A stretch of DNA of 64,000 nt from Solirubrobacteraceae bacterium (GCA_049591655.1 JBAWFG010000042.1:6849-70848), one strand, 5' to 3'; shown: positions 23,378 through 46,086, numbered from the stretch's first letter. Notes: generated from the letters alone by a model not told the origin. Made by a program: numbers and translations.

Positions 23378-24211
23378 TCAACCCCCGGGCTCGGAGACGA
23401 ACCGGTTCTCGATCCGCCCGACGCCGTCGATCTCGACGGCCACCACATCGCCGGGCCCGAGCAGCAGCGGCGGCTCACGGCGAAAGCCGACGCCGCTGGG
23501 GGTTCCGGTCAGGATCAGGTCGCCGGGCTCAAGCGTCGTGAACTGGGAGATGACGCTGACCAGGGTCGGGACGTCGAACAGCATCAGCTCGGTGCCGGCG
23601 TCCTGCACGGTCTCCCCGTTGACGGTGGTGCGCAGCCGCAGCGCACCCAGGTCGCCGACCTCGTCGAGGGTCACGAGCTCCGGCCCCACCGGGGTGGAGT
23701 CGTCCCACGCCTTGCCCTGCAGCCACTGATGCGTGCGGTTCTGGAAGTCACGCATCGTGACGTCGTTGGCGACCGTGGCGCCGGCCACGTAGCCCAGCGC
23801 GTGCTGTGGTGACACGCGCCGGGCGGACTCGCCGATCACGACGGTCAGCTCGCCCTCGTAGTCGATCGCCGTTGACTCGGCGGGGCAGGCAACCTCGGCA
23901 AACGGTCCGAGCAGCGACCGCGCGAACTTGGTGAACAGGACGGGATAGTCGGGCACGTCACGCTGCGCCTCCGCCGCGTGCGCCGCGTAGTTGAGGCCGA
24001 CGCAGATGACCTTCCCGGGCGCGGGCACCACCGGCCGGTAGCTGATCTCCGACAGCGCCACCGCTGCGGCTCGGTCCAGCGGCGGCTCGCGCAGCAGCGA
24101 CGCCGGAGTCTCCGTGCCGAGCTCGGCGATCCCGCTCAGGGGGATGGCCTGCTCGCCGTCGATCGCCACTGCCATGGGCGTCCCGTCGTGGAGCACTGAT
24201 GCGAAATGCAC
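23378..24211 (-). CDS. fumarylacetoacetate hydrolase (FAH) family protein
   Basis: VICVGLNY, DYEGELTVVIG, LEPGDLILTGTPSGVG. GTG at 24211 follows AAAGGA plus 7 nt. Confidence 0.85.
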   Translation of the reverse strand: MHFASVLHDGTPMAVAIDGEQAIPLSGIAELGTETPASLLREPPLDRAAAVALSEISYRPVVPAPGKVICVGLNYAAHAAEAQRDVPDYPVLFTKFARSLLGPFAEVACPAESTAIDYEGELTVVIGESARRVSPQHALGYVAGATVANDVTMRDFQNRTHQWLQGKAWDDSTPVGPELVTLDEVGDLGALRLRTTVNGETVQDAGTELMLFDVPTLVSVISQFTTLEPGDLILTGTPSGVGFRREPPLLLGPGDVVAVEIDGVGRIENRFVSEPGG

Positions 24212-24242
24212 GCTCGAGTCCTTTAGTAGCCAAATCAATAAG

Positions 24243-24254
24243 TTGCATACAGTT
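24243..24254 (-). promoter_or_regulatory. operator-like box, copy a (AACTGTATGCAA on minus strand)
   Basis: Lies in the AT-rich divergent intergenic region between the two FAH genes, 32 nt from GTG 24211 and 78 nt from ATG 24332. Confidence 0.55.
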
Positions 24255-24331
24255 TATCTATCTGTCTATACTTCTTGCCGAGGGAGCCGTTGCGCGGACA
24301 GCGGCCTGACGAGAACGCAAGGGAGTTGGAT

Positions 24332-25210
24332 ATGAAGCTGGTGACGTATGACGACGGGCGGGTCGGCAAGGTCGTCGATGACATCGTCATCGAGCTCAAC
24401 GTGCCCGACATGCGGCGGTACTTCGAGCTGAAGGGGCGGGTGGAGCCGACCGGCCGCCAGACCCCGCTCGCCGAGGTCACGCTGCGGGCGCCGATCATTC
24501 CCAAGAAGTTCTTCCACACCGCGGGCAACTTCCGTGAGCACCACGAGGAGTCAACGCGCGTCAACTGGTCACATCCGGTGCTGCCGTGGATCGTGTTCTT
24601 TCAGAACATCGACGCGATCATCGGACCCGACGAGCCGATCGTCTATCCGGAGGGAATGACCAACGAGCTTGACTACGAGCTCGAACTGGCGGTGATCATC
24701 GGCAAGGCAGGCAAGTTCTTCTCTCCCGAGCAGGCCGAGGAGTACATCGCCGGCTACATCGTCTTCAACGACATCACCGCACGGGACATCCAGCGTGAGG
24801 AGATGAAGTCAGGCGTCTTCTGCCTGTCCAAGGGCATCGACACCTTCTGCCCGATCGGCCCGTGGATCGTCACGCCCGACGAGATCCCCGATCCCCAGGA
24901 CCTGGCGATGGAACTGCGCGTCAACGGCGAGGTCCGCCAGACCTCCCACACCAGCCGCATGTCGGTGACGGTGGCGGAGATCATCAGTCACTACTCGGCG
25001 ATGGGCTACAGCCCCGGGGACATCGTCTCCACCGGCACCGTCGCCGGAGTTGCCGGCTTCAGCGAGGATCCCGCCTCGCTGTATCTCAAACCCGGCGACG
25101 TCGTCGAGGCCGAGGTCAAGGGCGTCGGGGTGCTGCGCAACCCGGTGATCGGCTGGAGCGAGCGCCACCCTGACATCCCGTCGGCCGACACCCAGGCGTC
25201 CCCCGTCTGA
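24332..25210 (+). CDS. fumarylacetoacetate hydrolase (FAH) family protein
   Basis: RBS GGGAG, then MKLVTYDDGRVG. DYELELAVIIG and SPGDIVSTGTVAGVA motifs. Confidence 0.9.
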   Translation: MKLVTYDDGRVGKVVDDIVIELNVPDMRRYFELKGRVEPTGRQTPLAEVTLRAPIIPKKFFHTAGNFREHHEESTRVNWSHPVLPWIVFFQNIDAIIGPDEPIVYPEGMTNELDYELELAVIIGKAGKFFSPEQAEEYIAGYIVFNDITARDIQREEMKSGVFCLSKGIDTFCPIGPWIVTPDEIPDPQDLAMELRVNGEVRQTSHTSRMSVTVAEIISHYSAMGYSPGDIVSTGTVAGVAGFSEDPASLYLKPGDVVEAEVKGVGVLRNPVIGWSERHPDIPSADTQASPV

Positions 25211-25228
25211 CCCGTCGTCTGCACTGAC

Positions 25229-26722
25229 GTGTCAGAGCGGGTCACCGTCCAGACTCCCTCCGGGGGGGTCCGCGGGGTCCGGGAGCGCGAGACCATCGCC
25301 TTCCGCGGAATCCCGTATGCCGTCGCGGACCGGTTTTCGCCGCCGCGCCCCGCGGGGCCGTGGTCCGGTGACCGCGACGCGCTGAGCAGCGGACCGGCCG
25401 CGCCGCAGCCCGACCGGGAGGTGGCGCGGTTCACCCACGGCCCTGCGCCGGATGCCGACGAGTGGGGGTGCCTGAACCTCAACGTGTTCACGCCCCGCCT
25501 CGACGGCCGCCGGCCGGTGATGGTGTGGCTGCACGGCGGCGGGTTCACCGTCGGCTCTCCCGGCGCGACCCTGTATGACGCCACTCGGCTGGCGGCCGCC
25601 GCCGACGCGGTGATCGTCTGCGTCGGCTACCGGCTCGGCAGCCTCGGCTGGCTGTGCCACCCGCGGATGGCCGGCGCCGAGGGCCAGCCGGCCGGCAACT
25701 GGGGGCTCCTTGATCAGATCGAGGCGCTGCGGTGGGTGGGTCGGAGCATCGCCGCGTTCGGCGGCGACCCCGGCAACGTGACCGTCGCCGGTCAATCGGC
25801 GGGCGCGCTGGCCGCGCTTGACATGCTGGCCGCTCCGCAGTCGGCAGGGCTCTTTCACCAGCTGATCGCCCAATCGCCGCCGCTGACCGACGTCGGGGGA
25901 CCCCCGGAGGCCGGCGTGCGTTGGGCCGAGTCGCTGCACCGCGCGCTGTTCGGTGACGCCGGCTTTGACCCGCAGGCACTGCGGGCGGCGCCCGTCGGCG
26001 ACGTGCTGCGCGCCCACGAGGAGTTGCTGACGCTCCCTGAGTACCGGGGTAGCCGCGGCGCGGTCCCGACGATCGACCCGGGCAGCCTGCCCGTCTCGCC
26101 GGGCGCCGACCCACGGCTGCGGCCTGAGATCCCGGTGCTGATCGGGACCGCCGCCCAGGAGGGCACGTTCTTCTTCGGATCCCCATGGCGCCCGGCGCCT
26201 CCGCCACAGCGGATCGGTGATGTCGTCGCCCACCTCGTTCCGGACTCCGATCCCGGCGAGGTCCTCGCCGCCTACGCGCACGGCGCCGCCCAGCGGGGAC
26301 GCTCCACCGACCCCGCCGCGCTGCTCGCCGAGATCGCCACCGACGCGATGTTCGCCAACCCGGTCGCGGACTGGGTGCGTGAGCGCTCTGCGGGGCAGCC
26401 CGGCGCCGGTGCCGGCGACCGTACAGGGTCCGCGGGCGTCTACCACTACCGGGTCGATCACCCGGGTGCCGGTCCCGCGCTCGGCGCCACGCACACCGTC
26501 GAGGTCCCGCTCCTGTTCGGCACCTGGGCCGACGGGGGCGCGGGCGAGCGGCTGGCCGGTCAGGCCGACGGGGCCGAGGCGGTCGCCGCCCAGCTGGTCG
26601 CCGCCTGGGGGGCCTTCCTGCACGCCGGCGACCCCGGCTGGGCGCCAGCTGACCAGCGCGCGGAGCAGGGGCCGGTCGTGTTCGGCGCTGGGACCGCCTC
26701 ACTGGTGACCCCTTCGCGCTGA
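25229..26722 (+). CDS. type-B carboxylesterase/lipase family enzyme
   Basis: GVRGV..FRGIPYA, WLHGGGF, nucleophile GQSAGA. GTG start. Confidence 0.9.
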   Translation: MSERVTVQTPSGGVRGVRERETIAFRGIPYAVADRFSPPRPAGPWSGDRDALSSGPAAPQPDREVARFTHGPAPDADEWGCLNLNVFTPRLDGRRPVMVWLHGGGFTVGSPGATLYDATRLAAAADAVIVCVGYRLGSLGWLCHPRMAGAEGQPAGNWGLLDQIEALRWVGRSIAAFGGDPGNVTVAGQSAGALAALDMLAAPQSAGLFHQLIAQSPPLTDVGGPPEAGVRWAESLHRALFGDAGFDPQALRAAPVGDVLRAHEELLTLPEYRGSRGAVPTIDPGSLPVSPGADPRLRPEIPVLIGTAAQEGTFFFGSPWRPAPPPQRIGDVVAHLVPDSDPGEVLAAYAHGAAQRGRSTDPAALLAEIATDAMFANPVADWVRERSAGQPGAGAGDRTGSAGVYHYRVDHPGAGPALGATHTVEVPLLFGTWADGGAGERLAGQADGAEAVAAQLVAAWGAFLHAGDPGWAPADQRAEQGPVVFGAGTASLVTPSR

Positions 26723-26811: not shown

Positions 26812-26825
26812 AACTGTGTACAGTT
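26812..26825 (+). promoter_or_regulatory. operator-like box, copy b (AACTGTGTACAGTT)
   Basis: Near-perfect palindrome in an AT-rich patch, 38 nt upstream of the livG-like start. Confidence 0.5.
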
Positions 26826-26862: not shown

Positions 26863-27666
26863 ATGAGGACCGTGCCGACCACCCAGACCTTGCTCGATGT
26901 CCGCGCACTGCGCGTCGCCTATGGCGGCGTCGTCGCGGTCTCAGACGTCGACCTGAACGTGCGTGAAGGCGAGGTCTTCGGACTGATCGGCCCCAACGGC
27001 GCCGGAAAGACCTCGATGATCGACGCTCTGACCGGCTACCAGCGCCCCGCCGGTGGAACCGTCGTGTTCGATGGCGTCGACATCACCCGAATGCGGGCTC
27101 ACCGCCGGGCCCGGATGGGGTTGGCGCGCACATTTCAATCCGTGGAGCTGTTCGACGATCTGACCGTCGATGAAAATCTCCTGGTCGCGAGCGAGCGCGC
27201 TGGAGTCGGTCAGACGTTGCGTGACCTCTTCCTCCCTGCCCGTGCGCCTGACCGGACCGTGGTGGACTGGGCAATCGATGTGTGTGACCTCGGTGCGGTC
27301 GTCGACCGGTTGCCGAGCGAGATCTCTCATGGCCAGCGCAAGCTTGTCGGAGTGGGCCGCGCCCTCGCCCAACAGCCTCGGCTCGTCCTGCTCGATGAGC
27401 CGGCGGCGGGACTCGACACCGAGGAGAGCCTTGAGCTGGGTCACCGGTTGCGCGCGCTGCCGGACGAGCACGGCGTCAGCGTGCTCCTCGTCGACCATGA
27501 CATGGGCCTTGTCCTCACGGTGTGTGACCGCGTCATGGTGGTCGACTTCGGAATGACGATCGCCGAGGGTGCACCGTCCGATATCCGGGAGGACCCGCGC
27601 GTCCTGGAGGCCTATCTGGGTAGCCACGGCCGGACACAGGCCAATCCGGTCGGGGGCACGGCATGA
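26863..27666 (+). CDS. branched-chain-amino-acid-type (HAAT family) ABC transporter ATP-binding protein, LivG-like
   Basis: Walker A GPNGAGKTS, signature ISHGQRKL, Walker B LVLLDEPAAG. The start could be GTG 26872 (better RBS spacing). Confidence 0.9.
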   Translation: MRTVPTTQTLLDVRALRVAYGGVVAVSDVDLNVREGEVFGLIGPNGAGKTSMIDALTGYQRPAGGTVVFDGVDITRMRAHRRARMGLARTFQSVELFDDLTVDENLLVASERAGVGQTLRDLFLPARAPDRTVVDWAIDVCDLGAVVDRLPSEISHGQRKLVGVGRALAQQPRLVLLDEPAAGLDTEESLELGHRLRALPDEHGVSVLLVDHDMGLVLTVCDRVMVVDFGMTIAEGAPSDIREDPRVLEAYLGSHGRTQANPVGGTA

Positions 27667-28445
27667 CCGCCACGATGCCGGCCGTCACATCCGCCGCGCT
27701 GGAGATCCAGGGTCTGGCCGCCGGTTATTTCGGCAGTCCCGTGATCCGTGACATCACGATCCGTGTGGCCCCGGGCGAGGTTGTGGCGCTGCTCGGACCT
27801 AATGGCGCTGGAAAGACAACGACGCTTGAGACGATCGCCGGCCTGAACAAGCCAATGGCGGGAACGATCTCGGTGCACGGCTCGGACGTCGGCTCTCGCC
27901 CGACTCATCTGCTGGCGCGGGAGGGGTTGGCGCTCGTGCCCGAGGGCCGCGCTCTGTTCCCTGGCCTGACCGTCCGTGAGCACCTCAGACTGGCCCGGTC
28001 CAAGGACGGCGTCGGTCAGCGTGAGCTGTTGGAGATGCTGCCCGAGCTGCAGAAATGCCTCGATCGCCGGGCGGGGCTGCTCTCCGGCGGTGAGCAGCAG
28101 ATGCTCGCCGTTGGCCGCGCGCTGGTCAGCCGTCCGCGGCTCCTGCTCGTCGACGAGATGAGCCTGGGCCTCGCGCCGGTGATCGTCGAGCGGCTGCTGC
28201 CGATCCTGCGGCGCGTGGCAAACGATTTCGGCACCGGCGTGCTGTTCGTCGAACAGCATGTTGCCCTCGCGCTCGAGGTCGCCGATCGAGCGTACGTACT
28301 CACCCACGGACGGATCGTTCTGGAGGGTCCGGCCGAGCAACTGCAGGCGGACCGAAAGCTGATCGCCGCGAGCTATCTCGGCGAGGCAGTCACCTACAGC
28401 CCCGAGCAGCACGCCATCACGTCAACCACCCAAAGGACCAACTGA
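27663..28445 (+). CDS. HAAT-family ABC transporter ATP-binding protein, LivF-like
   Basis: GPNGAGKTT, LSGGEQQML, LLLVDEMS. ATGA overlap with the preceding gene. Confidence 0.9.
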   Translation: MTATMPAVTSAALEIQGLAAGYFGSPVIRDITIRVAPGEVVALLGPNGAGKTTTLETIAGLNKPMAGTISVHGSDVGSRPTHLLAREGLALVPEGRALFPGLTVREHLRLARSKDGVGQRELLEMLPELQKCLDRRAGLLSGGEQQMLAVGRALVSRPRLLLVDEMSLGLAPVIVERLLPILRRVANDFGTGVLFVEQHVALALEVADRAYVLTHGRIVLEGPAEQLQADRKLIAASYLGEAVTYSPEQHAITSTTQRTN

Positions 28446-29719
28446 TGAGATCACTCCGTAAGCCGTTCGCCGCTGCGGCGGTGGTCGGCGCTGCCGCGCT
28501 GGCCGTCGCCGGATGCGGGAGCAGCAGCTCCTCGAGCTCGTCGACCGGCTCGTCGTCAGCTTCGACATCGACAGCCTCGAACGCGGCGAACACGAGTCTC
28601 GGAACGGTGCACAAGGCGACCGGGACGCCCTACGTCTTCGGACTGATCAACGATGAGACCGGACCGGTCACCTTCCCAGAGGCGCGGCAGGCCGAGATTG
28701 CAGCCGCCAGCTACGTCAACAACTACATGGGCGGCATCAACGGCCACCCGATCCAGCTGGCCGACTGCATCGGCGACACGACGGCGCCGACGAGCGCCCG
28801 CTGCGCCAACGAGCTCGTCGCAAAGCATCCGATGGCGATCCTCGGAGCAGCCGACACGGGCACGCCGGCTGCGGAGACGGTGTACGCGCGGGCAGGTCTC
28901 GCCTACCTCGGAGGCATCCCGTTCACCCCGGTCGAGCAGAACGCGCCGAACTCGGTCCAGTTCTGGTCGATCAGCCTCGGCGATAACGCCGCCGCCTCGG
29001 TGTACGCGGCCAAGTCGCTCGGCGCCAAGAGCGCCGATGTCCTCTACTTCGACAACTCGCAGGGCAAGGTCGCCGGGCTCGGCGTCATCCCGCCGGTGAT
29101 GAAGGCCGCGGGCATCACCAAGGTCAAGACGGTGGGTATTCCGCCGACGACGCCGGATCCGTCCTCCGTCGTCGCGACCGTCATCGCCGACCATCCCGAC
29201 GTCGTCTACGTCGATATCCCCAACAACTGCGGCGTCGTGCTCAAGGACCTCAAGAGCCTCGGCTACACCGGCAAGATCGTCGGGATCGACCCGTGCACCT
29301 CGCCGCCGGCCATCAGCTCCTCGGCCGGAGCTGCCCAGGGCATGTACGTCGCCACCCCGTTCCAGATCGGCCTGCCGCAGTTCAACACATTCGTTACCGC
29401 GCTCAAGAAGTATGGGGCGCCAGGAACTGCGATCGACGGGGTCTCCGAGGCGGGTTTCGCCACCGTCCTCAACGTCCGCAACGCGCTCAACACAATCAAG
29501 GGAACGCCGACGACCAAGACCATCCTGGCGGCCTTCAAAACGGGTTCAAATCACCCCAACTACATGTCACATCCCTACACCTGCGACGGACAGCAGGTCG
29601 CCAAGGCAGTGTCGGTCTGCGACGACCACTACCTGATCGCTCAGGTGAACGGGACGCAGCTCGTCGTCGCCCACCCGAACGCATGGGTCACCTCGAAGGG
29701 CTACTTCAAGGGCCTCTAG
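28445..29719 (+). CDS. Liv-type (type I periplasmic-binding fold) substrate-binding lipoprotein
   Basis: Lipobox LAVAGCGS followed by a Ser-rich linker. Size and pattern fit LivK/aromatic-acid binding proteins. Confidence 0.85.
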   Translation: MRSLRKPFAAAAVVGAAALAVAGCGSSSSSSSSTGSSSASTSTASNAANTSLGTVHKATGTPYVFGLINDETGPVTFPEARQAEIAAASYVNNYMGGINGHPIQLADCIGDTTAPTSARCANELVAKHPMAILGAADTGTPAAETVYARAGLAYLGGIPFTPVEQNAPNSVQFWSISLGDNAAASVYAAKSLGAKSADVLYFDNSQGKVAGLGVIPPVMKAAGITKVKTVGIPPTTPDPSSVVATVIADHPDVVYVDIPNNCGVVLKDLKSLGYTGKIVGIDPCTSPPAISSSAGAAQGMYVATPFQIGLPQFNTFVTALKKYGAPGTAIDGVSEAGFATVLNVRNALNTIKGTPTTKTILAAFKTGSNHPNYMSHPYTCDGQQVAKAVSVCDDHYLIAQVNGTQLVVAHPNAWVTSKGYFKGL

Positions 29720-29735: not shown

Positions 29736-29766
29736 GCGGGCCCGCTCGGACGGCGAGCGGGCCCGC
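29736..29766 (+). other. intercistronic perfect stem-loop inside the ABC operon
   Basis: GCGGGCCCGCTC-GGACGGC-GAGCGGGCCCGC, a 12-bp perfect stem with a 7-nt loop, between the binding-protein and permease genes. No U-tract. Confidence 0.6.
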
Positions 29767-29785: not shown

Positions 29786-31828
29786 ATGTCCACCTACCTC
29801 CTCTTCCTGATCCTCGGCCTCGGGTCTGGTGCTACCTATGCGATCCTCGGCCTGGGACTCGTCCTCAAGTACCGCTCCAGCGGCGTCGTGGACTTCGCGC
29901 ACGGCGCGGTGGCGATGTGGATCGCCTACGTCTTCGTCAACCTGCGCACCCAGGGGACGCTGCCGCTCCCATGGATCGTGATTCCCCACCAGATCACGGT
30001 CGCCTCAACCGGGATGAGCGCGGGCCCGGCGATCGCCATTGCACTCGTGTACGCCGCGTTGCTTGGCGGCGTCCTGTACCTCCTCGTGTACCGGCCGCTG
30101 CGGTTCGCGGCGCCACTCACGCGGATCTGCGCGTCGGTCGGCGTGATGCTGTTCTTCGAGGCGATCGCGGTCCTGAACTTCGGCACCGAGTCAAAGACGA
30201 CGCCGACGATCCTGCCGAGCACCTCGATCACGCTCAGCGGCATCACCTTCCCGAGTGACCGGATCTTCTTTGCCGGGATCGTGCTCGCCAGCGCGATCGT
30301 GCTGTCGCTCGTCTACCGGTACACCCGGTTCGGCCTGGCCACCCGCGCGGGTGCGGAGAACGACCGGGGGGCGGCGCTGATCGGCATCTCGGCCAACCGG
30401 GTCGCGCTCGCCAACTACGTGATCGCCACGGTTCTGGCCGGCGTGGCAGGGATCTTGATTGCGCCGATCGCCAACCTCGATCCGACGTCATACACGCTGT
30501 TCATCGTGCCCGCGCTCGGCGTGGCGCTCGTCGGTCGCTTCGAGTCCTTCTGGATCGTCGCGGTGGCCGGCCTGCTGCTGGGGATGCTCCAGTCGGAGAT
30601 CATCAAGTTCCAGACCTTCAGCTGGTTCCCGCAGGGCAACGTCGGCGACGCGCTCCCGTTCATCCTCATCATCGTGACGATGGCGCTGCGCGCCCGTAGC
30701 CCCCTGGCGCGCGGCGAGACCGTGGCGCAGCGCAACCCCACCGTGGCTCGGCCCGGCAACCCGCTCATGAGCGCCGCGTTCTGTGTCGCCGCCGGTGCGG
30801 TGCTGTTGTTCCTCCTCCAGGGATCGCTGCGCAACGCGTTCATCTCGTCGATGACCTTCACCTGCGTGGCACTCTCGCTGGTGTTGCTCACCGGATACGT
30901 CGGGCAGGTGTCCCTGGCGCAGATGACGTTTGCCGGCGTCGGCGGCTTCATGCTCGGACACATCTCGCACGGGTGGGGGATCGGTTTCCCGTTCTCGTTG
31001 ATCATCGCCGGGCTCTGCGCGGTCCCCATCGGACTTCTCATCGGGCTGCCCGCGTTGCGACTGCGTGGCGTCAACCTGGCGGTGGTGACACTGGGAGCGG
31101 CGTTCACCGCCGATGCGCTGATCTTCAATAGTCAGGGCTTCGCCGGCGGGCTCGACGGACTGCCGATCAAGGCGCCCCACCTGCTGGGTCTCAACCTGTC
31201 GATCAGCCAGGGCCACGATTACCCAACGATCATCTTCGGAGTGCTCGTTCTCCTGGTGGTGACCCTGATGGGGCTGCTCGTGGCGCGGCTGCGCCGCGGC
31301 GCAGCCGGCCGGATGCTGCTTGCCGTGCGCTCCAATGAGCGGGCCGCCGCATCGGTCGGCATCAACGTCCCTCAGGCCAAGCTGCTCGCGTTTGCGATCG
31401 CCGCGTTCATCGCGGGCATCGGGGGAGCGCTCACCGGCTACCAGCAGGGCACCCTGACCGCGGACGGCTTTTCCACCTTCGTCTCGCTGGGACTGCTGGC
31501 GGTCGTCTATGTGGCCGGCATCGGGCGCATCTCCGGTGCCGTCTTTGCGGGGATCATGATGGCGTCGATCGGTCTCTTCGTCACCTTCCTCGACGAGCAG
31601 TTCGGGATCGGCAAGTACCAGACGATCGTCGCCGGCGTCGCTCTCGTCGTCACCGCGATCGCCAACCCCGACGGCGTCATGAGCACCAGTACCGGCAAGG
31701 GACCGGCGGTCGCCTTCTTCGCGCTACGAGATGCGCTGCTCGCTCGTCTGCGCCCGGGGGGTGCGACAGAAGCGGATGTTCCTGCGGGTGACGTCCCGCC
31801 CGCCATCGAGCATCCGCGCCACGTCTAA
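29786..31828 (+). CDS. fused LivH-LivM type ABC permease (both membrane domains in one 680-aa polypeptide)
   Basis: The N-terminal half is LivH-like (LGLGSGATYAILGLGLVL). The C-terminal half is LivM-like (LLTGYVGQVSLAQMTFAGVGGF). No stop or frame change between the halves. Confidence 0.85.
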   Translation: MSTYLLFLILGLGSGATYAILGLGLVLKYRSSGVVDFAHGAVAMWIAYVFVNLRTQGTLPLPWIVIPHQITVASTGMSAGPAIAIALVYAALLGGVLYLLVYRPLRFAAPLTRICASVGVMLFFEAIAVLNFGTESKTTPTILPSTSITLSGITFPSDRIFFAGIVLASAIVLSLVYRYTRFGLATRAGAENDRGAALIGISANRVALANYVIATVLAGVAGILIAPIANLDPTSYTLFIVPALGVALVGRFESFWIVAVAGLLLGMLQSEIIKFQTFSWFPQGNVGDALPFILIIVTMALRARSPLARGETVAQRNPTVARPGNPLMSAAFCVAAGAVLLFLLQGSLRNAFISSMTFTCVALSLVLLTGYVGQVSLAQMTFAGVGGFMLGHISHGWGIGFPFSLIIAGLCAVPIGLLIGLPALRLRGVNLAVVTLGAAFTADALIFNSQGFAGGLDGLPIKAPHLLGLNLSISQGHDYPTIIFGVLVLLVVTLMGLLVARLRRGAAGRMLLAVRSNERAAASVGINVPQAKLLAFAIAAFIAGIGGALTGYQQGTLTADGFSTFVSLGLLAVVYVAGIGRISGAVFAGIMMASIGLFVTFLDEQFGIGKYQTIVAGVALVVTAIANPDGVMSTSTGKGPAVAFFALRDALLARLRPGGATEADVPAGDVPPAIEHPRHV

Positions 31829-33026: not shown

Positions 33027-33034
33027 CTCAGCTC

Positions 33035-33060
33035 ACCCGCCGGGGTCAGCCCCCGGCGGG
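33035..33060. terminator. hairpin between convergent P450 and dienelactone hydrolase genes
   Basis: ACCCGCCGGGG-TCAG-CCCCGGCGGGT, an 11-bp stem. The right arm overlaps the last codons of the minus-strand gene. Confidence 0.4.
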
Positions 33061-33835: not shown

Positions 33836-34381
33836 TCACTCGGGCGGCCCGGTCATGACACGCAGCGGCTCGCTGCCGTCCCAGCCCTCGGCCGCGCCGC
33901 GAACCATGGCGTAGAAGCCGAGCAGCTCGTCTCGCTGTTGGAGCACCTCAACGGGATGGCCGAGCAATGGGCCGCCCTCAAACCACACCGCCGAGGCCGG
34001 CCCGGCGCGCCCCGTGTGAAACGGCTTAAGGCCAAGCCCGCGCAGACGCTCGGTCTCCGCCTCCAGCGACTCGGCCAGCCACGCGATGTGGCCGATCCCC
34101 GCGCCCGGTGCGGTTAGCGCGGCGCGCAGGCCGGCCGGCTGGGCGTCGTGGACCTCGCTGAGCTCGACCAGCACCGGCCCCCACTGGCCGAACGCGGACG
34201 AGTGGTCATAGCTCGCCGGCGCTCCCCGGTAGGTCACCTCGTCAAAGACGATGTGCTCCATGCCAAAGAACGGCCCGGCGCCGAAGGCAGCGGCGAATCG
34301 GGGGACGTCGCGGGCGAGGCTTTCGACCACATAACCGACGTGATGAGGTCGTGAGGGTAGGTCTGCAGGCGTTGGACTCAT
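33836..34381 (-). CDS. VOC (glyoxalase/bleomycin-resistance/extradiol dioxygenase) family protein
   Basis: PHHVGYVV and IGHIAW beta-alpha-beta-beta-beta module starts. Confidence 0.7.
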   Translation of the reverse strand: MSPTPADLPSRPHHVGYVVESLARDVPRFAAAFGAGPFFGMEHIVFDEVTYRGAPASYDHSSAFGQWGPVLVELSEVHDAQPAGLRAALTAPGAGIGHIAWLAESLEAETERLRGLGLKPFHTGRAGPASAVWFEGGPLLGHPVEVLQQRDELLGFYAMVRGAAEGWDGSEPLRVMTGPPE

Positions 34382-37008: not shown

Positions 37009-37024
37009 TTACTGTATACAATTG
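37009..37024 (+). promoter_or_regulatory. operator-like box, copy d (TTACTGTATACAATTG)
   Basis: AT-rich patch 27 nt upstream of ATG 37051, just before RBS GAGGAGAG. Confidence 0.55.
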
Positions 37025-39327: not shown

Positions 39328-40262
39328 GAGTGCTCGGACTGAGCGCGGGCAATCCCGGCGGCAGCGCCGAGATCCTGTTGACGATCGCGCTGCGGGCCGC
39401 CGCCGGCCACGGCGCGCAGACGGCGCTCGTGCGCCTGGACGACCTGGTGCTGCCGACGCGGCCGATCGGCCCCGCCGACGACGCCGCCGCCGATGACGGC
39501 GCCTGGCTGTGGGATCAGGTCATGGACGCCGACGGGCTGATTGTCGCCTCACCGATCTACTCGCGCACGGTGCCGGGCAAGCTCAAGCTCGTCGCCGATC
39601 GCCTGTCGGGGCCGGCCGCCGACGTCGCGTTTGCCGAGGCCTACCGCCGGATGCTCGACGCGGGGCAGACTCCGCCGGTCGCGTTTCCCTATGACGAGCG
39701 GGTCTTCCGGCCGCGCGTTGCCGGGCTGATCGCCGTCGGCGGGGCGCTGACCAGCCAGTGGAAGACGCTGGCCCTGCCGCTCATGCACCAGATGATGTTC
39801 TCCTCGCACATCGCGGTGGCCGATCAACTGCTCGTCGGTGGCGCCGGGATGCCGCGCGCGGTCGTCCTCGACGAGCCGGCGCTGGCCGCCGCGGCGCGCG
39901 TGGGGGAGAGCGTCGGGTCCCAGCTGGGGCACGGGTTCGATGCCGTCCAATACCGGGGCGATCTCGGCCTGTGCCCGCTGTGTCACCTGTCGGTGGTCAG
40001 CGTCGACGGCGATCAGGTGGAGTGCGCGACGTGTGGCGCCGCCGGGCGCCTGGAGGTCACAGACGGCGCGGCCGCGATCCGGTTCGATGACCCGGCCGGC
40101 CTGGAACGCTCGATCATCTCGATGACCGAGAAGCGCGCCCACTTCCACGAGGTCCAGCAGACCGCCGGCGTGCAGGGCCCGCAGGCTGAGGAGATCGCAC
40201 AGCGGGCGGCGCGCTATGCGGCCGACGAGAGTCGCATCACGCCCGCGGTCGCCCACTCCTAA
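39324..40262 (+). CDS. NAD(P)H-dependent FMN reductase-like flavoprotein with internal CxxC...CxxC zinc-ribbon and C-terminal extension
   Basis: MRVLGLSAGNPGGSAE and SPIYSRTVPGKLK (FMN_red-like). CPLCH...CATCG at 39972-40034. ATGA overlap with the monooxygenase gene. Confidence 0.75.
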   Translation: MRVLGLSAGNPGGSAEILLTIALRAAAGHGAQTALVRLDDLVLPTRPIGPADDAAADDGAWLWDQVMDADGLIVASPIYSRTVPGKLKLVADRLSGPAADVAFAEAYRRMLDAGQTPPVAFPYDERVFRPRVAGLIAVGGALTSQWKTLALPLMHQMMFSSHIAVADQLLVGGAGMPRAVVLDEPALAAAARVGESVGSQLGHGFDAVQYRGDLGLCPLCHLSVVSVDGDQVECATCGAAGRLEVTDGAAAIRFDDPAGLERSIISMTEKRAHFHEVQQTAGVQGPQAEEIAQRAARYAADESRITPAVAHS

Positions 40263-40273: not shown

Positions 40274-41056
40274 TCAGGGCCGATCAGGCCGCCGGGCGAC
40301 CGCGTAGCGGAACAGGTTGTGCATCGCCACCCGGCCGTCGGCTGCAGTGAACGGAATCACGGCCGTGGTCAGCGCCGCGCGCGCCGCCGGCTCGCCGGCC
40401 GCGTCGATCGCCATCGCCCCGCCGCCGGAGGCGAGCACCGCCCGGACGGCGCGGTCGACATCGTCGTGGGCCCACACGACCGGCACCTCACCGTCGGTGA
40501 CGGGCATCAGGCCACCGCTCTGCAGCAGCTGCCGCAGTCCGCTGGGCTCTGACAGGGCGTAGGGGAGATGCTGCGCGGCGGCCGGACCCGCCGCCCGCAA
40601 CGGCTCGAGCGCCAGGTGCAGGGCGGTTGACTCGTTGCGCTGTGGCTCGGCGAACGTCGTGGCCGCCACCAGCCCACCCCGTCGCACGACCCGGGCCGCC
40701 TCGGTCACCGCCGCGGGCGGATCATCGGCGAACGGGAAGGCGTTGAAGCCGACGACGACGTCAAAGCTCTCGTCGGCGAACGGCAGCGTGTCCATCCCGC
40801 CGACCAGGAGCGTGGCGGCGGGGACGCGCTCCTGGGCGATCTCCAGCAGTTCGGGGGTGATGTCAAGGCCGGTCACGGTCGCGCCGCGGCGCGCCGCCAT
40901 CGCCAGCGCGTAGCCCGAGCCGCAGCCGACGTCGAGCAGGGCGGTCCCCGGCCCGCAGCCCACGGCGTCGAGCACCCGCTCAAACAGCACGGCGTTTGAC
41001 GGCTCGGCCAGTTCGGCCCACTCCCGGGGCCGCCGGCCCCAATGCTCGGAGCTCAT
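40274..41056 (-). CDS. class I SAM-dependent methyltransferase
   Basis: Motif I LLDVGCGSG. The ATG at 41056 is chosen because the longer track ORF would run through the box-containing intergenic region. Confidence 0.85.
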   Translation of the reverse strand: MSSEHWGRRPREWAELAEPSNAVLFERVLDAVGCGPGTALLDVGCGSGYALAMAARRGATVTGLDITPELLEIAQERVPAATLLVGGMDTLPFADESFDVVVGFNAFPFADDPPAAVTEAARVVRRGGLVAATTFAEPQRNESTALHLALEPLRAAGPAAAQHLPYALSEPSGLRQLLQSGGLMPVTDGEVPVVWAHDDVDRAVRAVLASGGGAMAIDAAGEPAARAALTTAVIPFTAADGRVAMHNLFRYAVARRPDRP

Positions 41057-41066: not shown

Positions 41067-41100
41067 TTACTGCATACAGTTAGAGAACCTGTGTAGAGTT
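41067..41100 (+). promoter_or_regulatory. operator-like boxes, copy e (TTACTGCATACAGTTA plus degenerate AACCTGTGTAGAGTT)
   Basis: Fills the 57-nt divergent intergenic region between the methyltransferase and GlcG-like genes. Confidence 0.55.
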
Positions 41101-41113: not shown

Positions 41114-42067
41114 ATGAGTCACCCTCACGACATCTCCCTGAGCGACGCGCGCGCGCTGATCGCCCGCGCGGTCGATAAGGCGGCCCACATCGGGGCCCGC
41201 GGGGCGTTCGCCGTCGTCGGGGGCTCCGGAACGCTCGTGTCGGCTTCACGCATGGATCGCGGCGGCGCCGGCGGCATGGCCCGTGCCCGCTCCAAAGCGT
41301 GGATCTCGGGCACCCAGCAGATCCCGAGCACCGAGCATCACCTGCGCATGGCGACGCTGCCGCCCCCGATCGCCGCCGGGTTTGTCGCCTGCTCGCCGGA
41401 GGCCAACTTCCCCGGCGCCGGCGGCATGCCGATCCGTGACGAGTCCGATCCCGTCCGCCCGGTGATCGGCGGGTTCAGCGCGTCGGGCGCGACCGTCGGC
41501 CCATTCGTCGACATCCCGGGGATCGACCGGCGGATGCTGATCGCCGAGGGCAAGCCGGCCAACTCCGAGGATCTGATCGTCCTCTGGGCACTCGGGCTGC
41601 CCTACGAGGGCCAGCATGGTGACGACGAGAAGCGCTGGCTCGACGCGTTCGGGGCGCTCCCTGACGAGGAGGGTCTCGGCTACGGCGACCCGCCGCCGGC
41701 CGACCAGCCGGAACGTGAGTGGGCGCTCGGGCTGGCCGACGCGGCGATCGCCGAGGCCGAACGCCGTTCGCTTCCGATCGCGGTCGCGGTCGTCGATGTG
41801 CGCGGCGACCCGATCCAGCTGGACACGATGGACGGCGCGCCGTCCGCCGCCCCGTTCGTCGCCGAGGCGCTGGCCGCGGGAGCCGCCACCTTCCAGGCCC
41901 CGAGCGCAGAGATCGATCCGGTCCTCACCGCCGTGCTCCCCTACCGCGTCCTGACCGTCCCCGGTGGGCTGCCCGTCTGGGCCGGCGAACGGGTGGTGGC
42001 CGGCCTCGGCATCGCCGGCGCGGACACCGCGGTGTGTGATCAGATCGCCGCGTCCGTGCTCCAATGA
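41114..42067 (+). CDS. tandem GlcG/HbpS-like (DUF336) heme-binding-type protein
   Basis: Two DUF336-like halves: AFAVVGGSGTLVSASRMDRGG... and IAVAVVDVRGDPIQLDTMDGA...GGLPV...VVAGLGIAG. Confidence 0.75.
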   Translation: MSHPHDISLSDARALIARAVDKAAHIGARGAFAVVGGSGTLVSASRMDRGGAGGMARARSKAWISGTQQIPSTEHHLRMATLPPPIAAGFVACSPEANFPGAGGMPIRDESDPVRPVIGGFSASGATVGPFVDIPGIDRRMLIAEGKPANSEDLIVLWALGLPYEGQHGDDEKRWLDAFGALPDEEGLGYGDPPPADQPEREWALGLADAAIAEAERRSLPIAVAVVDVRGDPIQLDTMDGAPSAAPFVAEALAAGAATFQAPSAEIDPVLTAVLPYRVLTVPGGLPVWAGERVVAGLGIAGADTAVCDQIAASVLQ

Positions 42068-42981
42068 GGATCTGCATCGTCGGCTGTGGTGCCATCGGCG
42101 GCCTGTACGCCGCCCACCTCGCCACGCTGCCCGACATCGCGGTCTGGGGGTATGACGTCTCAGCCGAACATGTGGCGGCGATCGCCGAGCACGGGCTGCG
42201 GCTGACCGGCGCCATCGAGCTGACCGCGAGGGTGCAGGCGCGCACCGATCCGAGCGAGATCCCCCCCTGCGAGCTGGGGATCGTGGCCACCAAGGGGACC
42301 GCGACCGCGCCGGCGATCGCCGCGACCGCGGCCGTGTTCGCCGACGGCGCGGTCTGCAGCGTGCAGAACGGAATCGGCAACGAGGAGGTGATCGCCGACC
42401 ACGTGCCGCGCGTGATGCGGGGCGTGACCCTGCCGGCGGGGCGCATCGCCGCGCCGGGGGTCATCCACGTCGACGCGCCGGGCCCAACCTGGATCGGGCC
42501 GTTTGAGCCCCAGCCGGCGTCCGCCCCGGAGATTGAGCAGCTCGCCGAGCTGCTCAACCGCAGCGGGCTCGAGACCCGCGCGGTCGCCGACGCGCGCGGC
42601 GCCCAGTGGACCAAGCTGCTGTTCAACGCCTCCACCAACCCACTGTGCGCGCTCACCGGCCTGACCCACGGTCAGCTGTGCGACTACCCGCCGACCCGGC
42701 GCCTGGTCGGCGAGCTGCTGGCGGAGGGCGAGGCGGTGGTGTCGGCGCTCGGCATCGCGTTGGACAGCGATCCCGGCGCGCTCGTCGACGAGGCCGCGCG
42801 GGTCAATCCCCATCACCGCCCGAGCATGCTGCAGGATGTCGCTGCTCGGCGGGCCACCGAGATCGCGACACTCAATGGCGGCATCGTCGCGGCCGCGCGC
42901 CCGACCGGCATCCCGACCCCGCAGCACGAGGCGGTCGTCGATCTCATTCGCGGTATGGAGCGCAGCTGGAGCGAGCAATGA
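42064..42981 (+). CDS. 2-dehydropantoate 2-reductase (ketopantoate reductase/ApbA) family oxidoreductase
   Basis: [14 protein letters not shown]-terminus, SVQNG, and SMLQD near the C-terminus. ATGA overlap with the preceding gene. Confidence 0.85.
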
Positions 42982-43475
42982 CCGCGCTCACTGCAGGTCC
43001 GATCCCCGGCTTCAACGGCGAGGTCGTGCGTCCCGGCGACGTCGCCTATGACGGTGCTCGAACGGTGTGGAACGCAATGCACGACCGCCATCCCGCGCTG
43101 ATCGCGCGTTGCCGGTCGGCCGCCGACGTCGCTGCCGCCATCGCCTACGGGCGGGGGCACGGGTTGCCGATCGCCGTCCGGGGCGGCGGCCACAGCATGC
43201 CGGGCCACAGCGTCTGTGACGGCGGCATCGTGATCGACCTGCGGGCGCTCAACGCGGTGACCGTCGATCCGGTGGCGCGGCGGGCCACCGTCGGGGGCGG
43301 GGCGCTGCTCGGCGAGCTTGACCGGGCCACGCAGGCCCACGGCATGGTCGTCCCCGCCGGCGTGGTCTCGCACACCGGGACGAGCTGGCCCCAGCGGTCA
43401 GCTCGCTTGACGTCTTCCGGCTCAACCAGAACATTCGGCCGTAGTGTGGACGGAAAGCGAAACTGTATGCAATAA
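42978..43475 (+). pseudogene. truncated FAD_binding_4 oxidoreductase (N-terminal ~134 aa only)
   Basis: Family-like up to ...[13 protein letters not shown]...[13 protein letters not shown]. At nt ~43380 the expected GxxGxxLGGGxG continuation is replaced by unrelated residues and a stop. A full-length paralogue type (458 aa) is at 35608..36984. Confidence 0.65.
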
Positions 43476-43476: not shown

Positions 43477-43485
43477 CCCTTCTCG

Positions 43486-43827
43486 ATGGATTCTCCGCAG
43501 ACGATCGACTGGGACCGACAGGAGTTCGCCGAGGTGCGTCCGGGCATCTTCGGCGCGACGGTTCACACGCCGCAGCTGACCGCCACCCTGTATCGCTACG
43601 GCGCCGGGTCCAGCTGGGAGGAGCATCAGCACCCCCAGGATCAGGTCACCCAGGTGCTCGAGGGTGTGATCGACTTCGTCGTCGACGGGACAACGGTGCG
43701 CCTGGCCGCCGGCCAGCTCGCCACGCTGCCGGGCGGGACGCCGCATTCGGCGACCGTTCCCGCGGCCGGTTCCGCGGTGACCCTCAACGTCTTCACCCAC
43801 CGCGAGGCGCCCCCGCGTGCCGGCTGA
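43486..43827 (+). CDS. monocupin-domain protein
   Basis: 113 aa. WEEHQHPQDQVTQVLEG...HSA is a cupin motif 1/2 pattern. Confidence 0.8.
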   Translation: MDSPQTIDWDRQEFAEVRPGIFGATVHTPQLTATLYRYGAGSSWEEHQHPQDQVTQVLEGVIDFVVDGTTVRLAAGQLATLPGGTPHSATVPAAGSAVTLNVFTHREAPPRAG

Positions 43828-44566
43828 CTGGCTCGGCCTCGCGGGCCGGCGGGTACTCATCGCGGGCGGGGCGGGCACGATCGGATCCGCGCTCGTCGGC
43901 GGCTTTCTCGACGTGGGCGCCCAGGTTGGGGTCACGGACCTCTCAGAGTCAGCGCTCGCCGGCGTTGACGGCCGGGTCTCCGCGCGGCATGCCGCCGACC
44001 TGTCGGACCCGTCCGCCGCCCGTGGCGCGGTGGAGGCGGTTCGTGACGCGCTGGGCGGACTCGACGTGTTCGTGCACTGCGTCGGCATCAACGACCGGCG
44101 GCCGATCGAGGACTATGCCGCCGCCGATTGGGACCGGATCGTGTCGGTCAACCTGACGAGTGCGTTTCACACCGCCGCTGAGGCGGTCGTGAGCATGCGG
44201 GACCAGGCGGCGGGGCGGATCATCTTCTTCTCCTCGGTCGCCGGGCGCAGCGGCCACAAGCTTCACGGCCCCTATGCCGCCACCAAGGGCGCGATCAACC
44301 AGCTGATGCGGGTCATCGCCCACGAGAACGCCGAGCACGGCATCACCGCCAACGCCGTCGCCCCCGGTTACATGGACACCGAGCTGACGGCGCGTTACCT
44401 GGCGGAGAATCCGGACAAGCGGGCTGGACTGGTGTCGCTCATTCCGGCCGGGCGATTCGGGGTCCTGCAGGAGGTGGTCGATCCCGTCCTATTTCTCAGC
44501 TCGCCGCGCGCGAGCTTCATCACCGGGCAGGTTCTGTACATCGACGGCGGTCGCACGATCGTCTGA
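43817..44566 (+). CDS. SDR-family oxidoreductase
   Basis: AGGAGTIGSA, GINDRR and YAATKGA (YxxxK). Start uncertain because of an 11-nt overlap with the cupin gene. Confidence 0.85.
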   Translation: MPADWLGLAGRRVLIAGGAGTIGSALVGGFLDVGAQVGVTDLSESALAGVDGRVSARHAADLSDPSAARGAVEAVRDALGGLDVFVHCVGINDRRPIEDYAAADWDRIVSVNLTSAFHTAAEAVVSMRDQAAGRIIFFSSVAGRSGHKLHGPYAATKGAINQLMRVIAHENAEHGITANAVAPGYMDTELTARYLAENPDKRAGLVSLIPAGRFGVLQEVVDPVLFLSSPRASFITGQVLYIDGGRTIV

Positions 44567-44574
44567 GGAGAGCA

Positions 44575-45348
44575 ATGGAGCGCAGATTTCAGGGGCGCAG
44601 CTTCCTGGTCACCGGAGCGGGGACCGGGTTCGGTGCCGAACTGGCCGTACGGGCCGCGCAGGAGGGGGCGGCGCGGGTGCTCATCCACTACCGCGCGTCG
44701 GCGCAGGGCGCGGAGCAGACCGCGCAGCGCGTTCGCGAGGTGGGCGCGGAGGCCGAGCTCATCCAGGGTGACATCACCTCCTGGGAGGACATCAAGCGGA
44801 TGGCCGCGGTGGCCTTCGATGACCATGGTGGTATCGACGTTCTCGTCAACAACGTCGGCGAGATGGCCTCCGGCCAGTCGTCCTGGACCGAGGTGACCGA
44901 GGAGGCGATCGACCATGTGCTCGCCGTCGACATCAAGGGAACGATGCTGATGGTGCACGAGTTCGGCCAGCGCATGATGGACGGCGCGGGCGGGGCGATC
45001 GTCAACGTTGGCTCGACCGTCATCGTGCGCGGCAGCCCCCGTGCTCCCCAGTACGCCGCGGGCAAGTACGGCCTGCTCGGGGTGACCAAGTCCTATGCCA
45101 AGGCCCTGGCCCCGAAGGTGCGCGTCAACACATTCGCGCCGGGTTTCATGGAGACCGAGGCGCTGCTCGCCCGCCCCGAGTGGAAGGCCGGCCGGCGCGA
45201 GGTCGTCCTGTCCGGTACGCCGGCTGCGAAGATTCCCAAGCCGGAGGAGATGACCGGCGCCGCGCTCTTCCTGGCCAGCGACGATGCCCACCACATCACC
45301 GGTTCCTACATGATCGCCGACGGCGGCTACAGCATGCTGGGTGCGTAA
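44575..45348 (+). CDS. SDR-family oxidoreductase
   Basis: TGAGTGFG, NNVG and YAAGKYG (YxxxK). Confidence 0.9.
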   Translation: MERRFQGRSFLVTGAGTGFGAELAVRAAQEGAARVLIHYRASAQGAEQTAQRVREVGAEAELIQGDITSWEDIKRMAAVAFDDHGGIDVLVNNVGEMASGQSSWTEVTEEAIDHVLAVDIKGTMLMVHEFGQRMMDGAGGAIVNVGSTVIVRGSPRAPQYAAGKYGLLGVTKSYAKALAPKVRVNTFAPGFMETEALLARPEWKAGRREVVLSGTPAAKIPKPEEMTGAALFLASDDAHHITGSYMIADGGYSMLGA

Positions 45349-45357
45349 CCTCCGAAC

Positions 45358-46086
45358 ATGTCGACCAACGGACAGGGCACTGAGGACGTATACGAGCGGG
45401 TCCGCGCCGCGATCCTCGACGGCGAGCTCGCCCCGGGCGCGGTGATGTCGCAGGTCGCTCTGGCCGAGGAGCTGGGGATCAGTCGCACGCCGCTGCGCGA
45501 GGCGCTGCGCATGCTCCAGAGCGAGGGCCTCGTCGAAGGCGAGCCGAACCGGCGTGTGCGCGTGGCCCCGATGACCGCACGCGACCTCGAGGAGGTGTGT
45601 GTCATGCGGGTGACGCTCGAGGCCGAGGCGCTGCGGCTGTCGGTCCCCGCGATGACCTCGGAGGACATCGCCCGCCTGGAGGGCCACATGGCCGAGATGG
45701 CGCACTACGCCAACGAGAAGGACTACCGGCGCTGGAACGTGCCCCATAAGCGCTTTCATCGGACGCTCACCGAGCATGCCGGCGAGCGGGTCAACTTCGT
45801 GCTCGGCCAGATGTTTGATCATGCTGAGCGCTACCGCCGTCTGCACATCGGCCAGGGGCCGAGCGCCTGGGCCACCCCGCAGCATCGTGACATCCTCGAT
45901 GCCTGCAAGGCCGGCGACCGGGAGCGTGCCGGAGCGCTGCTCGCCGGCCACCTCGCGCGGACCGGGCTGGAGGTCTCCGAGCTGCTCGATCCCGGCTATG
46001 AGCCACGGCTATTGCAGGCCGCCGTCGTCGACGCCGGGGCCGAGCTGCCGACCCGACGCGGCCGCAAGCGTTCCGCGGGCAGCTGA
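45358..46086 (+). CDS. GntR-family transcriptional regulator, FadR/FCD subfamily
   Basis: N-terminal winged HTH (GAVMSQVALAEELGISRTPLREALRMLQSEGLV) plus an all-helical C-terminal FCD-like domain with His residues. Confidence 0.9.
   Translation: MSTNGQGTEDVYERVRAAILDGELAPGAVMSQVALAEELGISRTPLREALRMLQSEGLVEGEPNRRVRVAPMTARDLEEVCVMRVTLEAEALRLSVPAMTSEDIARLEGHMAEMAHYANEKDYRRWNVPHKRFHRTLTEHAGERVNFVLGQMFDHAERYRRLHIGQGPSAWATPQHRDILDACKAGDRERAGALLAGHLARTGLEVSELLDPGYEPRLLQAAVVDAGAELPTRRGRKRSAGS

Follow-up and report, generated by a model that had tools for sequence, protein, structure and literature searches.

The window analysed here, a stretch of 64,000 nucleotides (GCA_049591655.1, JBAWFG010000042.1:6849-70848), comes from an uncultured soil actinobacterium of the Solirubrobacterales, an order that is common in soil and has few cultured members. 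It contains a gene cluster of about 23 kb (23378-46086), which is probably a regulon controlled by a GntR/FCD transcription factor and devoted to the uptake and degradation of plant flavonols or flavonol glycosides. As the G+C content of the window is about 70%, genes were called by third-position G+C; they were annotated with Pfam and NCBIfam. Related loci were obtained as up to 40 kb around ten matches, supplemented by loci from named records, and all window proteins were mapped onto them; in this comparison G-numbers denote genomes and L-numbers denote loci. Every gene family listed in the original prediction, which had been made from the sequence alone, was recovered by Pfam at its place in the cluster. 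Beyond that list, the cluster encodes the GntR/FCD regulator (45358-46086) and the remnant of a second FAD_binding_4 oxidase (42978-43475).

Gene content and the box regulon

The left part of the cluster encodes two divergent hydrolases of the FAH family, FAH1 (286 amino acids; 23378-24238, minus strand; PF01557, E 1.4e-71), which only some relatives keep, and FAH2 (311 amino acids; 24275-25210, plus strand; PF01557, E 2.7e-70). FAH2 is followed on the plus strand by a type-B carboxylesterase (497 amino acids; 25229-26722; PF00135, E 3.7e-73), a candidate depside esterase, and by the genes of an ABC importer. These comprise the LivG-type (26863-27666) and LivF-type (27663-28445) ATPases (PF00005, PF12399), a lipoprotein substrate-binding protein of the Peripla_BP_6 family with the lipobox LAVAGC (28445-29719; PF13458, E 2.3e-31), and a fused LivH-LivM permease (680 amino acids; 29786-31828), which matches PF02653 in two stretches and whose fusion is kept in relatives. 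Between the binding-protein gene and the permease gene lies a perfect G+C-rich hairpin (GCGGGCCCGCTCG...CGAGCGGGCCCGC; 29736-29766). The permease gene is followed by a cytochrome P450 gene (about 31845-33026, plus strand; PF00067), which converges with the gene for a dienelactone hydrolase family protein (33046-33798, minus strand; PF01738, E 1.8e-29), a second esterase or lactonase candidate found in some relatives. The G+C-rich inverted repeat between these two convergent genes (CCCGCCGGGG...CCCCGGCGGG; 33027-33060) is probably a two-way terminator.

The central part encodes two single-domain VOC proteins, VOC1 (181 amino acids; 33836-34381, minus strand; PF13669), which is kept and divergent from VOC2 in nearly all relatives, and VOC2 (34434-34844, plus strand). 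VOC2 is followed by SDR1 (34844-35611, plus strand) and an EncM/BBE-like FAD_binding_4 oxidase (35608-36984, plus strand), all assigned by Pfam and kept in this order in relatives. The plus strand continues with a YxaG/QdoI-type bicupin (340 amino acids; 37051-38073), a putative flavonol 2,4-dioxygenase, a group-A FAD monooxygenase (414 amino acids; 38083-39327; PF01494) and an FMN_red-family protein (312 amino acids; 39324-40262; PF03358), while an S-adenosylmethionine-dependent methyltransferase of about 260 amino acids (258-272 in relatives) is encoded on the minus strand (40274-41056; PF08241). The right part of the cluster, all on the plus strand, encodes a tandem GlcG/HbpS-like protein with two PF03928 stretches (41114-42067), a ketopantoate-reductase-family (KPR-like) reductase (42064-42981; PF02558, PF08546), the remnant of the second BBE-type FAD oxidase, recognised by homology to its G007 orthologue and carrying an internal deletion, a monocupin (43486-43827), SDR2 (43817-44566) and SDR3 (44575-45348), the last three recovered by Pfam, and finally the GntR/FCD transcription factor (PF00392, PF07729), which stands at the cluster end in relatives too.

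These genes are tied together by a 13-nt box, AACTGTATGCAAT, found at six intergenic sites of the cluster (24242, 26812, 34408, 37010, 41069 and 43461), each before an operon or a divergent gene pair. Counted at up to three mismatches to AACTGTATGCAAT, the whole window holds 10 box matches against 1.8 expected, and none of 100 shuffles reaches 10; the box core ACTGTATGCA recurs at orthologous intergenic positions in 17 related loci. Box a (24242-24254; one mismatch) lies between the divergent FAH1 and FAH2 genes and is found upstream of FAH2 in relatives as well, and box b (26812-26825), a palindromic match with three mismatches on both strands, is located upstream of the transporter operon. 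Box c (34408-34420; exact match) lies between the divergent VOC genes, at the same place in relatives, and box d (37010-37023), a palindromic match with two to three mismatches, is positioned 28 nt upstream of the bicupin start. Box e (41069-41081; one mismatch) separates the methyltransferase gene from the GlcG gene, and box f (43461-43473; exact match) precedes the cupin-SDR-SDR-GntR operon and is found upstream of the cupin gene in relatives too. As the longest-ORF (open reading frame) starts of LivG, VOC2, the bicupin, the methyltransferase and the cupin run through a box, these starts were shifted downstream: LivG starts at an in-frame ATG at 26863, preceded by GGAGGAGAG and located 3' of box b, the methyltransferase starts at an in-frame ATG at 41056 downstream of its box, and the bicupin start was put at 37051 because the homologues are 340 amino acids long.

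Six operons share one operator-like box, and the final one, behind box f, ends with the gene for the GntR/FCD protein. This protein combines a winged-helix domain (PF00392) with an FCD domain (PF07729), and together with the repeated box before the operons this is the arrangement of a GntR/FCD regulon. Taken jointly with the assignment of the regulon to flavonols, and held with the same moderate confidence, control of the cluster by the GntR/FCD protein through the box as putative operator is what the sequence points to.

The flanks consist of unrelated genes (ABC-2 exporter, aldehyde dehydrogenase, P-type ATPase, HAD hydrolase and a two-component system). The G+C content is 0.66-0.73 inside the cluster and 0.65-0.72 outside and is flat across the borders, which rules out a compositional island; the word island, used in the original prediction, should be replaced by accessory gene cluster with a patchy distribution. 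A biosynthetic cluster was also considered and rejected, as no polyketide synthase, non-ribosomal peptide synthetase or terpene core genes were seen among the Pfam results for the cluster. At the right border, a short direct repeat (GCACTAGCTGGCG, two copies about 32 nt apart; 46120-46170) at the 3' end of the HAD hydrolase gene faces the end of the GntR gene. Further away, in the region 7346-10488, an aldehyde dehydrogenase gene precedes a long ORF, possibly two genes, that combines an FAH domain with an RraA/aldolase-like domain; this region carries no box and could be a separate small catabolic unit. DNA of the window is present in soil metagenomes from several studies, and no RNA run is listed among the sequencing runs that contain it.

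The bicupin, the importer and the remaining enzymes

The bicupin is the protein with the most specific assignment. In a phmmer search against all PDB chains its significant matches are quercetinases only, namely Bacillus subtilis YxaG/QdoI (2h0v, E 2e-58), QueD (E 4.6e-19) and the Aspergillus 2,3QD (1gqg, E 1.8e-13); the next matches are unrelated small cupins at E > 1e-4. An AlphaFold model built on 26 homologues (predicted local distance difference test 89.9, predicted template modelling (TM) score 0.90) superposes on YxaG (2h0v) at a TM score of 0.92 and on the quercetin-bound fungal enzyme 1h1i at 0.82, and the next fold classes, oxalate decarboxylase and salicylate dioxygenase, reach a TM score of about 0.5. 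Among 111 homologues the three histidine metal ligands are invariant in both cupin domains, as is the glutamate of the C-terminal domain, whose motif HVHERTYE...H aligns to HVHKDTHE of YxaG. The ligand motif of the N-terminal domain, H-x-H-x4-Asp...H, is a variant with aspartate in 101 and glutamate in 10 homologues. By fold, metal ligands and a sequence similarity exceeding that to other cupin dioxygenases, the predicted protein is a member of the YxaG/QdoI quercetinase family with its metal ligands kept, and it is a putative flavonol 2,4-dioxygenase that would form a depside and CO. This placement, which was based on PDB sequence and fold searches, puts the bicupin with the flavonol dioxygenases and bears out its description as quercetinase-like. 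Gentisate, salicylate and 1-hydroxy-2-naphthoate dioxygenases were rejected as identities for the bicupin: none was matched in the PDB at E <= 0.01, and salicylate 1,2-dioxygenase (3nst) superposes at a TM score of 0.50 with a root mean square deviation of 12 A. The gentisate-type alternative offered in the original prediction is excluded for this protein by the same searches.

The best sequence pairing of the bicupin with YxaG is crosswise (residues 199-355 with YxaG 8-165, and 25-161 with YxaG 177-313), and the collinear structural alignment shows only 29% identity, which together suggest that the domain order is permuted relative to YxaG.

The importer has the composition of the HAAT (Liv-type) family, with two ATPases, BPD_transp_2 permease domains and a Peripla_BP_6 binding protein with a lipobox. 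As a single sequence the binding protein found no match in the PDB; a seven-sequence profile gave weak matches both to LivJ-type proteins and to aromatic-acid binders of Rhodopseudomonas. Across the seven orthologues, six cysteines are invariant besides the lipobox cysteine (C108, C120, C262, C284, C380 and C392). This pattern suggests three disulfides, which to our knowledge would be unusual among LivJ-type proteins.

The carboxylesterase is pnbA/Est50-like, and its place in the same box regulon as the bicupin is the esterase linkage to be expected of a cluster for rutin or quercitrin utilisation. No signal-like sequence was seen at its N-terminus. As the same holds for all enzymes whose N-termini were inspected, none of which has an obvious signal sequence, the enzymes are probably cytoplasmic. 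FAH2 belongs to the best-conserved proteins of the cluster (73-85% identity across relatives), and its nearest solved relative is the L-2,4-diketo-3-deoxyrhamnonate hydrolase 8gsr (E 3.3e-43). The FAH proteins are nearest to beta-diketone hydrolases, yet they stay far under the equivalog cut-offs, with 174.6 bits (FAH2) and 196.2 bits against the 500-bit cut-off for L-2,4-diketo-3-deoxyrhamnonate hydrolase; all NCBIfam matches of FAH1 are below the equivalog cut-offs as well. SDR2 and SDR3 have a generic gluconate 5-dehydrogenase and FabG as nearest solved relatives, the PDB neighbours of the carboxylesterase, the FAD monooxygenase and both SDRs are generic or uncharacterised, and no close characterised relative was found for the group-A FAD monooxygenase. 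The oxidase at 35608-36984 had been called BBE-like; it is indeed an FAD_binding_4 oxidase, but it has no Pfam match to the BBE domain and its nearest solved relative is EncM (E 2.5e-39). For the pathway roles that had been suggested for the FAH, VOC, SDR, KPR and GlcG genes, no specific characterised relative was found.

Conservation and glycosidases in related genomes

Of 36 congeneric genomes, 11 encode the bicupin, and the 24 genomes searched from other families of the order all lack it. In a sample of 400 genomes covering 248 genera of the phylum it was found in this one genus only; the homologue sources that are named are uncultured Solirubrobacterales or Solirubrobacteraceae genomes assembled from soil and peat. 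The cluster is kept in about 20 related Solirubrobacterales loci despite shuffled gene order, and even where identity of the bicupin is down to about 50%, as in four genomes, the same families stay together in a different order. Its stable core consists of VOC1 divergent from VOC2-SDR1-FAD oxidase-bicupin-FMN_red, of the methyltransferase, of GlcG-KPR-(second FAD oxidase)-cupin-SDR2-SDR3-GntR, in which the cupin-SDR2-SDR3 module is always contiguous, and of FAH2-esterase-ABC importer. An orthologue of the carboxylesterase was detected in 9 of the 11 genomes with the bicupin and in not one of the 49 others searched, and the same counts were obtained for the tandem GlcG protein. As the genomes are related and the genes are linked, these co-occurrences show one shared unit and not a series of independent events. 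Most relatives also encode a KstD/flavocytochrome-like FAD_binding_2 protein. In G036 the esterase gene adjoins an Amidohydro_2 gene, which is a candidate decarboxylase by sequence; the Amidohydro_2 family includes non-oxidative hydroxybenzoate decarboxylases.

Variable genes are the P450, the group-A monooxygenase, the dienelactone hydrolase and FAH1. The original prediction had counted the P450 and the group-A hydroxylase among the pathway enzymes; both are present in the window, but as variable accessories and not as part of the core. The group-A monooxygenase is found in G007, G029, G015, G022, L039, L043-L045 and L048 and is absent or replaced in others. In G001, L040 and L041 a luciferase-like monooxygenase takes its place; the G001 gene (L015:18427-19506) is located between those for the bicupin and GlcG, in the slot taken in the window by the FAD monooxygenase, FMN_red and methyltransferase genes, and appears to be an alternative oxygenase cassette. 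The coupling of the hydroxylase to the flavin-reductase-like protein did not hold up: the FMN_red gene is kept in G016, G026, L042, L046, G028 and G036 without the hydroxylase, adjoining the bicupin or the FAD oxidase gene there, which makes a dedicated FMN_red-hydroxylase coupling unlikely.

In relatives the importer is accompanied by glycosidases. A GH78 alpha-L-rhamnosidase of about 880-900 amino acids is encoded directly 3' of the permease gene in G001, G007, G016, G026 and L046, L042 and L048 each contain a GH78 gene at the edge of the retrieved region, and a GH3 enzyme is present in G026 and G019. GH78 and GH3 enzymes are those that release quercetin from quercitrin or rutin. No signal-like N-terminus was seen in the glycosidases of G007 and G026, and the binding protein has a lipobox; the glycoside would for these reasons be imported and trimmed inside the cell. 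The GH78 gene of G016 (L021:12253-14916) is split into two ORFs of 430 and 399 amino acids, which may reflect a frameshift, a genuine interruption or a fault in the assembly.

The window copy of the cluster is reduced in comparison. The glycosidase to be expected of a rutin or quercitrin cluster is missing in the window, and it is present in G001, G007, G016, G026, L042, L046 and L048. Where G001, G007, G016, G026 and L046 have GH78, the window has the P450 gene 3' of the permease gene, an arrangement shared only with L045 (84% identity). No homologue of the FAD_binding_2 (KstD-like) protein was found between VOC1 and the dienelactone hydrolase or elsewhere in the genome, which is 92.7% complete. 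The second FAD oxidase retains 139 N-terminal codons, homology to the orthologue of 461 amino acids in G007 stops at VVSHTG (43379), and its last 11 codons reappear at 43409-43441 in another frame; it is full length in G007, G016, L045, G028 and G036. In G007 and G029 a GATase-like gene stands between the second FAD oxidase and KPR genes. The window copy is thus a trimmed variant, and it probably handles aglycones.

An IclR gene, an MTHFR-like gene and a GCV_T-family gene flank the cluster in G007 (L020:13799-17668) and G016 (L021:856-4717). In G007 they lie at the FAH2 end, and the GCV_T protein is a LigM equivalog by its score of 864 bits against a 580-bit cut-off. By this sequence assignment, LigM is a vanillate/3-O-methylgallate O-demethylase and the flank of G007 is predicted to be a tetrahydrofolate-dependent aryl O-demethylation module.

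Probable flavonol catabolism, rival explanations and known systems

The assignment of the cluster to flavonol uptake and degradation would imply the following route. The flavonol would be imported, in relatives probably as a rhamnoside or rutinoside that is trimmed intracellularly by GH78 and GH3. The bicupin would open the C ring with O2 to give CO and the depside, which the carboxylesterase or the dienelactone-hydrolase-family protein may split into the B-ring acid and phloroglucinol carboxylate. The B-ring acid, protocatechuate, could enter a pcaHG beta-ketoadipate route encoded on another contig, and the A-ring product may be processed by the SDR pair, the monocupin, the KPR-like reductase, the tandem GlcG protein, the EncM-like oxidase, the VOC proteins and the FAH-type C-C hydrolases. 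The B-ring acid has a route because protocatechuate 3,4-dioxygenase is encoded in the same genome: on contig C292, pcaH (349.8 bits against an NCBIfam cut-off of 296.4) and pcaG (223.4 against 126.25) precede a pcaB-like gene. Contig C30 carries a LigM-like gene (55% identity). A 2026 preprint describes the depside esterases of this route as not well characterised. A more far-reaching proposal, which we put forward tentatively and consider doubtful as a whole, is that the core (esterase, EncM-like oxidase, GlcG, KPR, FMN_red, monocupin, SDR pair and FAH proteins) constitutes an undescribed aerobic route for phloroglucinol carboxylate and that the cluster also provides the first gene for a bacterial depside esterase and for HAAT-type import of flavonoids or their glycosides.

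Of the polyphenol or flavonol degradation with dedicated uptake originally predicted, the bicupin, the GH78 and GH3 genes of relatives, the co-occurrence of the esterase and pcaHG speak in favour, and the supposed hydroxylase-reductase coupling is not supported. The claim that depside hydrolysis and the later steps all have candidates stands for the esterase, which co-occurs strictly with the bicupin; no specific characterised relative was found to back it for the FAH proteins and their companions. Several observations weigh against flavonols as substrate. The characterised relatives of the bicupin are all distant, with only 29% identity to YxaG in the Foldseek collinear alignment, and a different substrate is possible for that reason. 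The binding protein lies as far from aromatic-acid binders as from amino-acid binders, and we know of no HAAT-type importer that carries flavonoids. No GH78 was found in the window's own genome with the queries used, the NCBIfam and PDB searches yielded no specific characterised relative for any putative A-ring gene, and the phloroglucinol genes (cyclase-family DPGC and BKACE-family TAL) are missing from the cluster. Linked genes in related genomes co-occur for trivial reasons as well, and the support is drawn entirely from sequence, predicted fold and comparative genomics.

Among the rival explanations, degradation of another plant or soil aromatic ranks first, followed by mere detoxification and then by a rhamnose sub-module. 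The cluster might act, for example, on another compound of the 3-hydroxy-4-pyrone type, on a lichen or tannin depside, or on a phenol of the resorcinol or phloroglucinol type, with a non-flavonol substrate for the bicupin. The low identity to YxaG leaves room for this, and the conserved core contains an EncM-like oxidase, a tandem GlcG protein, a KPR-like reductase and a methyltransferase, which have no known role in flavonol catabolism. FAH proteins nearest to beta-diketone hydrolases would suit the triketo-acid products of resorcinol- or phloroglucinol-type rings, and an esterase together with an Amidohydro_2 decarboxylase would also fit orsellinate-type depsides. Against this stand the characterised members of the bicupin's cupin family, all of which are flavonol dioxygenases, the GH78 and GH3 genes beside the importer, which point to rhamnosylated plant glycosides, and the exclusion of gentisate- and salicylate-type bicupins, so that another substrate class is rather unlikely, though it deserves the most weight of the three.

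A flavonoid detoxification or stress response, in which the bicupin destroys toxic flavonols and the oxidoreductases handle quinones and reactive products, appears distinctly less probable. B. subtilis QdoI is part of a flavonoid-inducible resistance response, and it is this enzyme that is the closest characterised homologue of the bicupin; VOC/glyoxalase proteins, a methyltransferase and an FMN_red protein would fit as well, the FMN_red family including quinone reductases. Such a function is difficult to reconcile with a high-affinity-type ABC importer with lipoprotein binding protein in the same regulon, since import of a toxin merely for its destruction is unlikely, and it leaves the cytoplasmic glycosidases 3' of the importer in relatives, the FAH hydrolases, the strict linkage of the esterase to the bicupin and the pcaHG route of the genome without a place. 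It was also considered that FAH2, the cupin, SDR2 and SDR3 form a non-phosphorylative L-rhamnose module (LRA1/LRA5/LRA6) that consumes the sugar released by GH78 and has no aromatic role. The best solved and NCBIfam relatives of FAH2 (8gsr and NF053535) are hydrolases of this very pathway, two SDRs adjoin FAH2 in several relatives, and GH78 occurs in the same cluster in seven relatives. The module was nevertheless rejected as very improbable: the score of FAH2 falls far below the equivalog cut-off, no L-rhamnonate dehydratase or lactonase was found by Pfam among the cluster genes, the SDRs are nearest to generic enzymes, and the genes are kept in genomes and loci without GH78, including that of the window.

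Flavonols and their glycosides are among the main forms in which plant carbon and signalling compounds enter soil, and the bacterial genes acting after quercetinase are poorly known. If the cluster serves flavonol degradation, as we consider probable, the regulon provides clonable candidates for the missing pathway steps, its regulator-operator pair might respond to flavonoids, and its genes can serve as markers of flavonol turnover in soil metagenomes. In literature searches, no characterised bacterial cluster combining quercetinase, esterase and rhamnosidase was found, and nothing specific linking Solirubrobacter with flavonoids.

Compared with known systems, the bicupin resembles B. subtilis YxaG/QdoI (1y3t, 2h0v) in its fold, its sequence and its His-x-His-x4-Glu ... 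His ligands; it differs in its low collinear identity, in the crosswise domain match and in the aspartate of its N-terminal domain, where YxaG has glutamate. In B. subtilis, qdoI is regulated by proteins of the TetR type and is not known to belong to a large catabolic cluster that includes an importer. QueD of Streptomyces sp. FLA (5fli), a monocupin Ni/Co quercetinase from a host that, like the window organism, is an actinobacterium, is matched by each of the two bicupin domains (E 4.6e-19) and superposes at a TM score of 0.78 on the target's length; it is a single domain of 186 amino acids, whereas the protein described here is a two-domain fusion.

Disposal of the A ring is also what the anaerobic phloroglucinol pathway PGR-DPGC-TfD-TAL of Clostridium scatologenes (PMC10470551) would accomplish, and it does so with reductases or dehydrogenases of the SDR type and two steps of C-C cleavage. 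Its presence in the cluster was rejected, as both the cyclase and BKACE families are absent there and their copies are scattered over four other contigs, not together. The cluster has FAH hydrolases, a cupin, a KPR-like reductase and GlcG instead, and in the absence of cyclase and BKACE genes its A-ring route, if the A ring is degraded here, would differ from that pathway.

The classical rutin pathway of glycosidases, quercetinase and depside esterase is known biochemically from Aspergillus and some bacteria. The cluster resembles it in the order of activities, in the rhamnosidase and glucosidase of relatives, in the quercetinase homologue and esterase candidates, and in protocatechuate cleavage encoded elsewhere in the genome. 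In contrast to the classical scheme, the route here seems to run in the cytoplasm after import by a HAAT-type ABC system and to be encoded in one GntR-controlled multi-operon cluster; the window copy has no glycosidase, and about ten conserved enzymes have no role in the classical scheme. The pathway type is known biochemically; what is new is the conserved bacterial cluster itself, in which an uncultured lineage from soil joins importer, glycosidases, quercetinase and esterase with some ten enzymes that have no assigned role.

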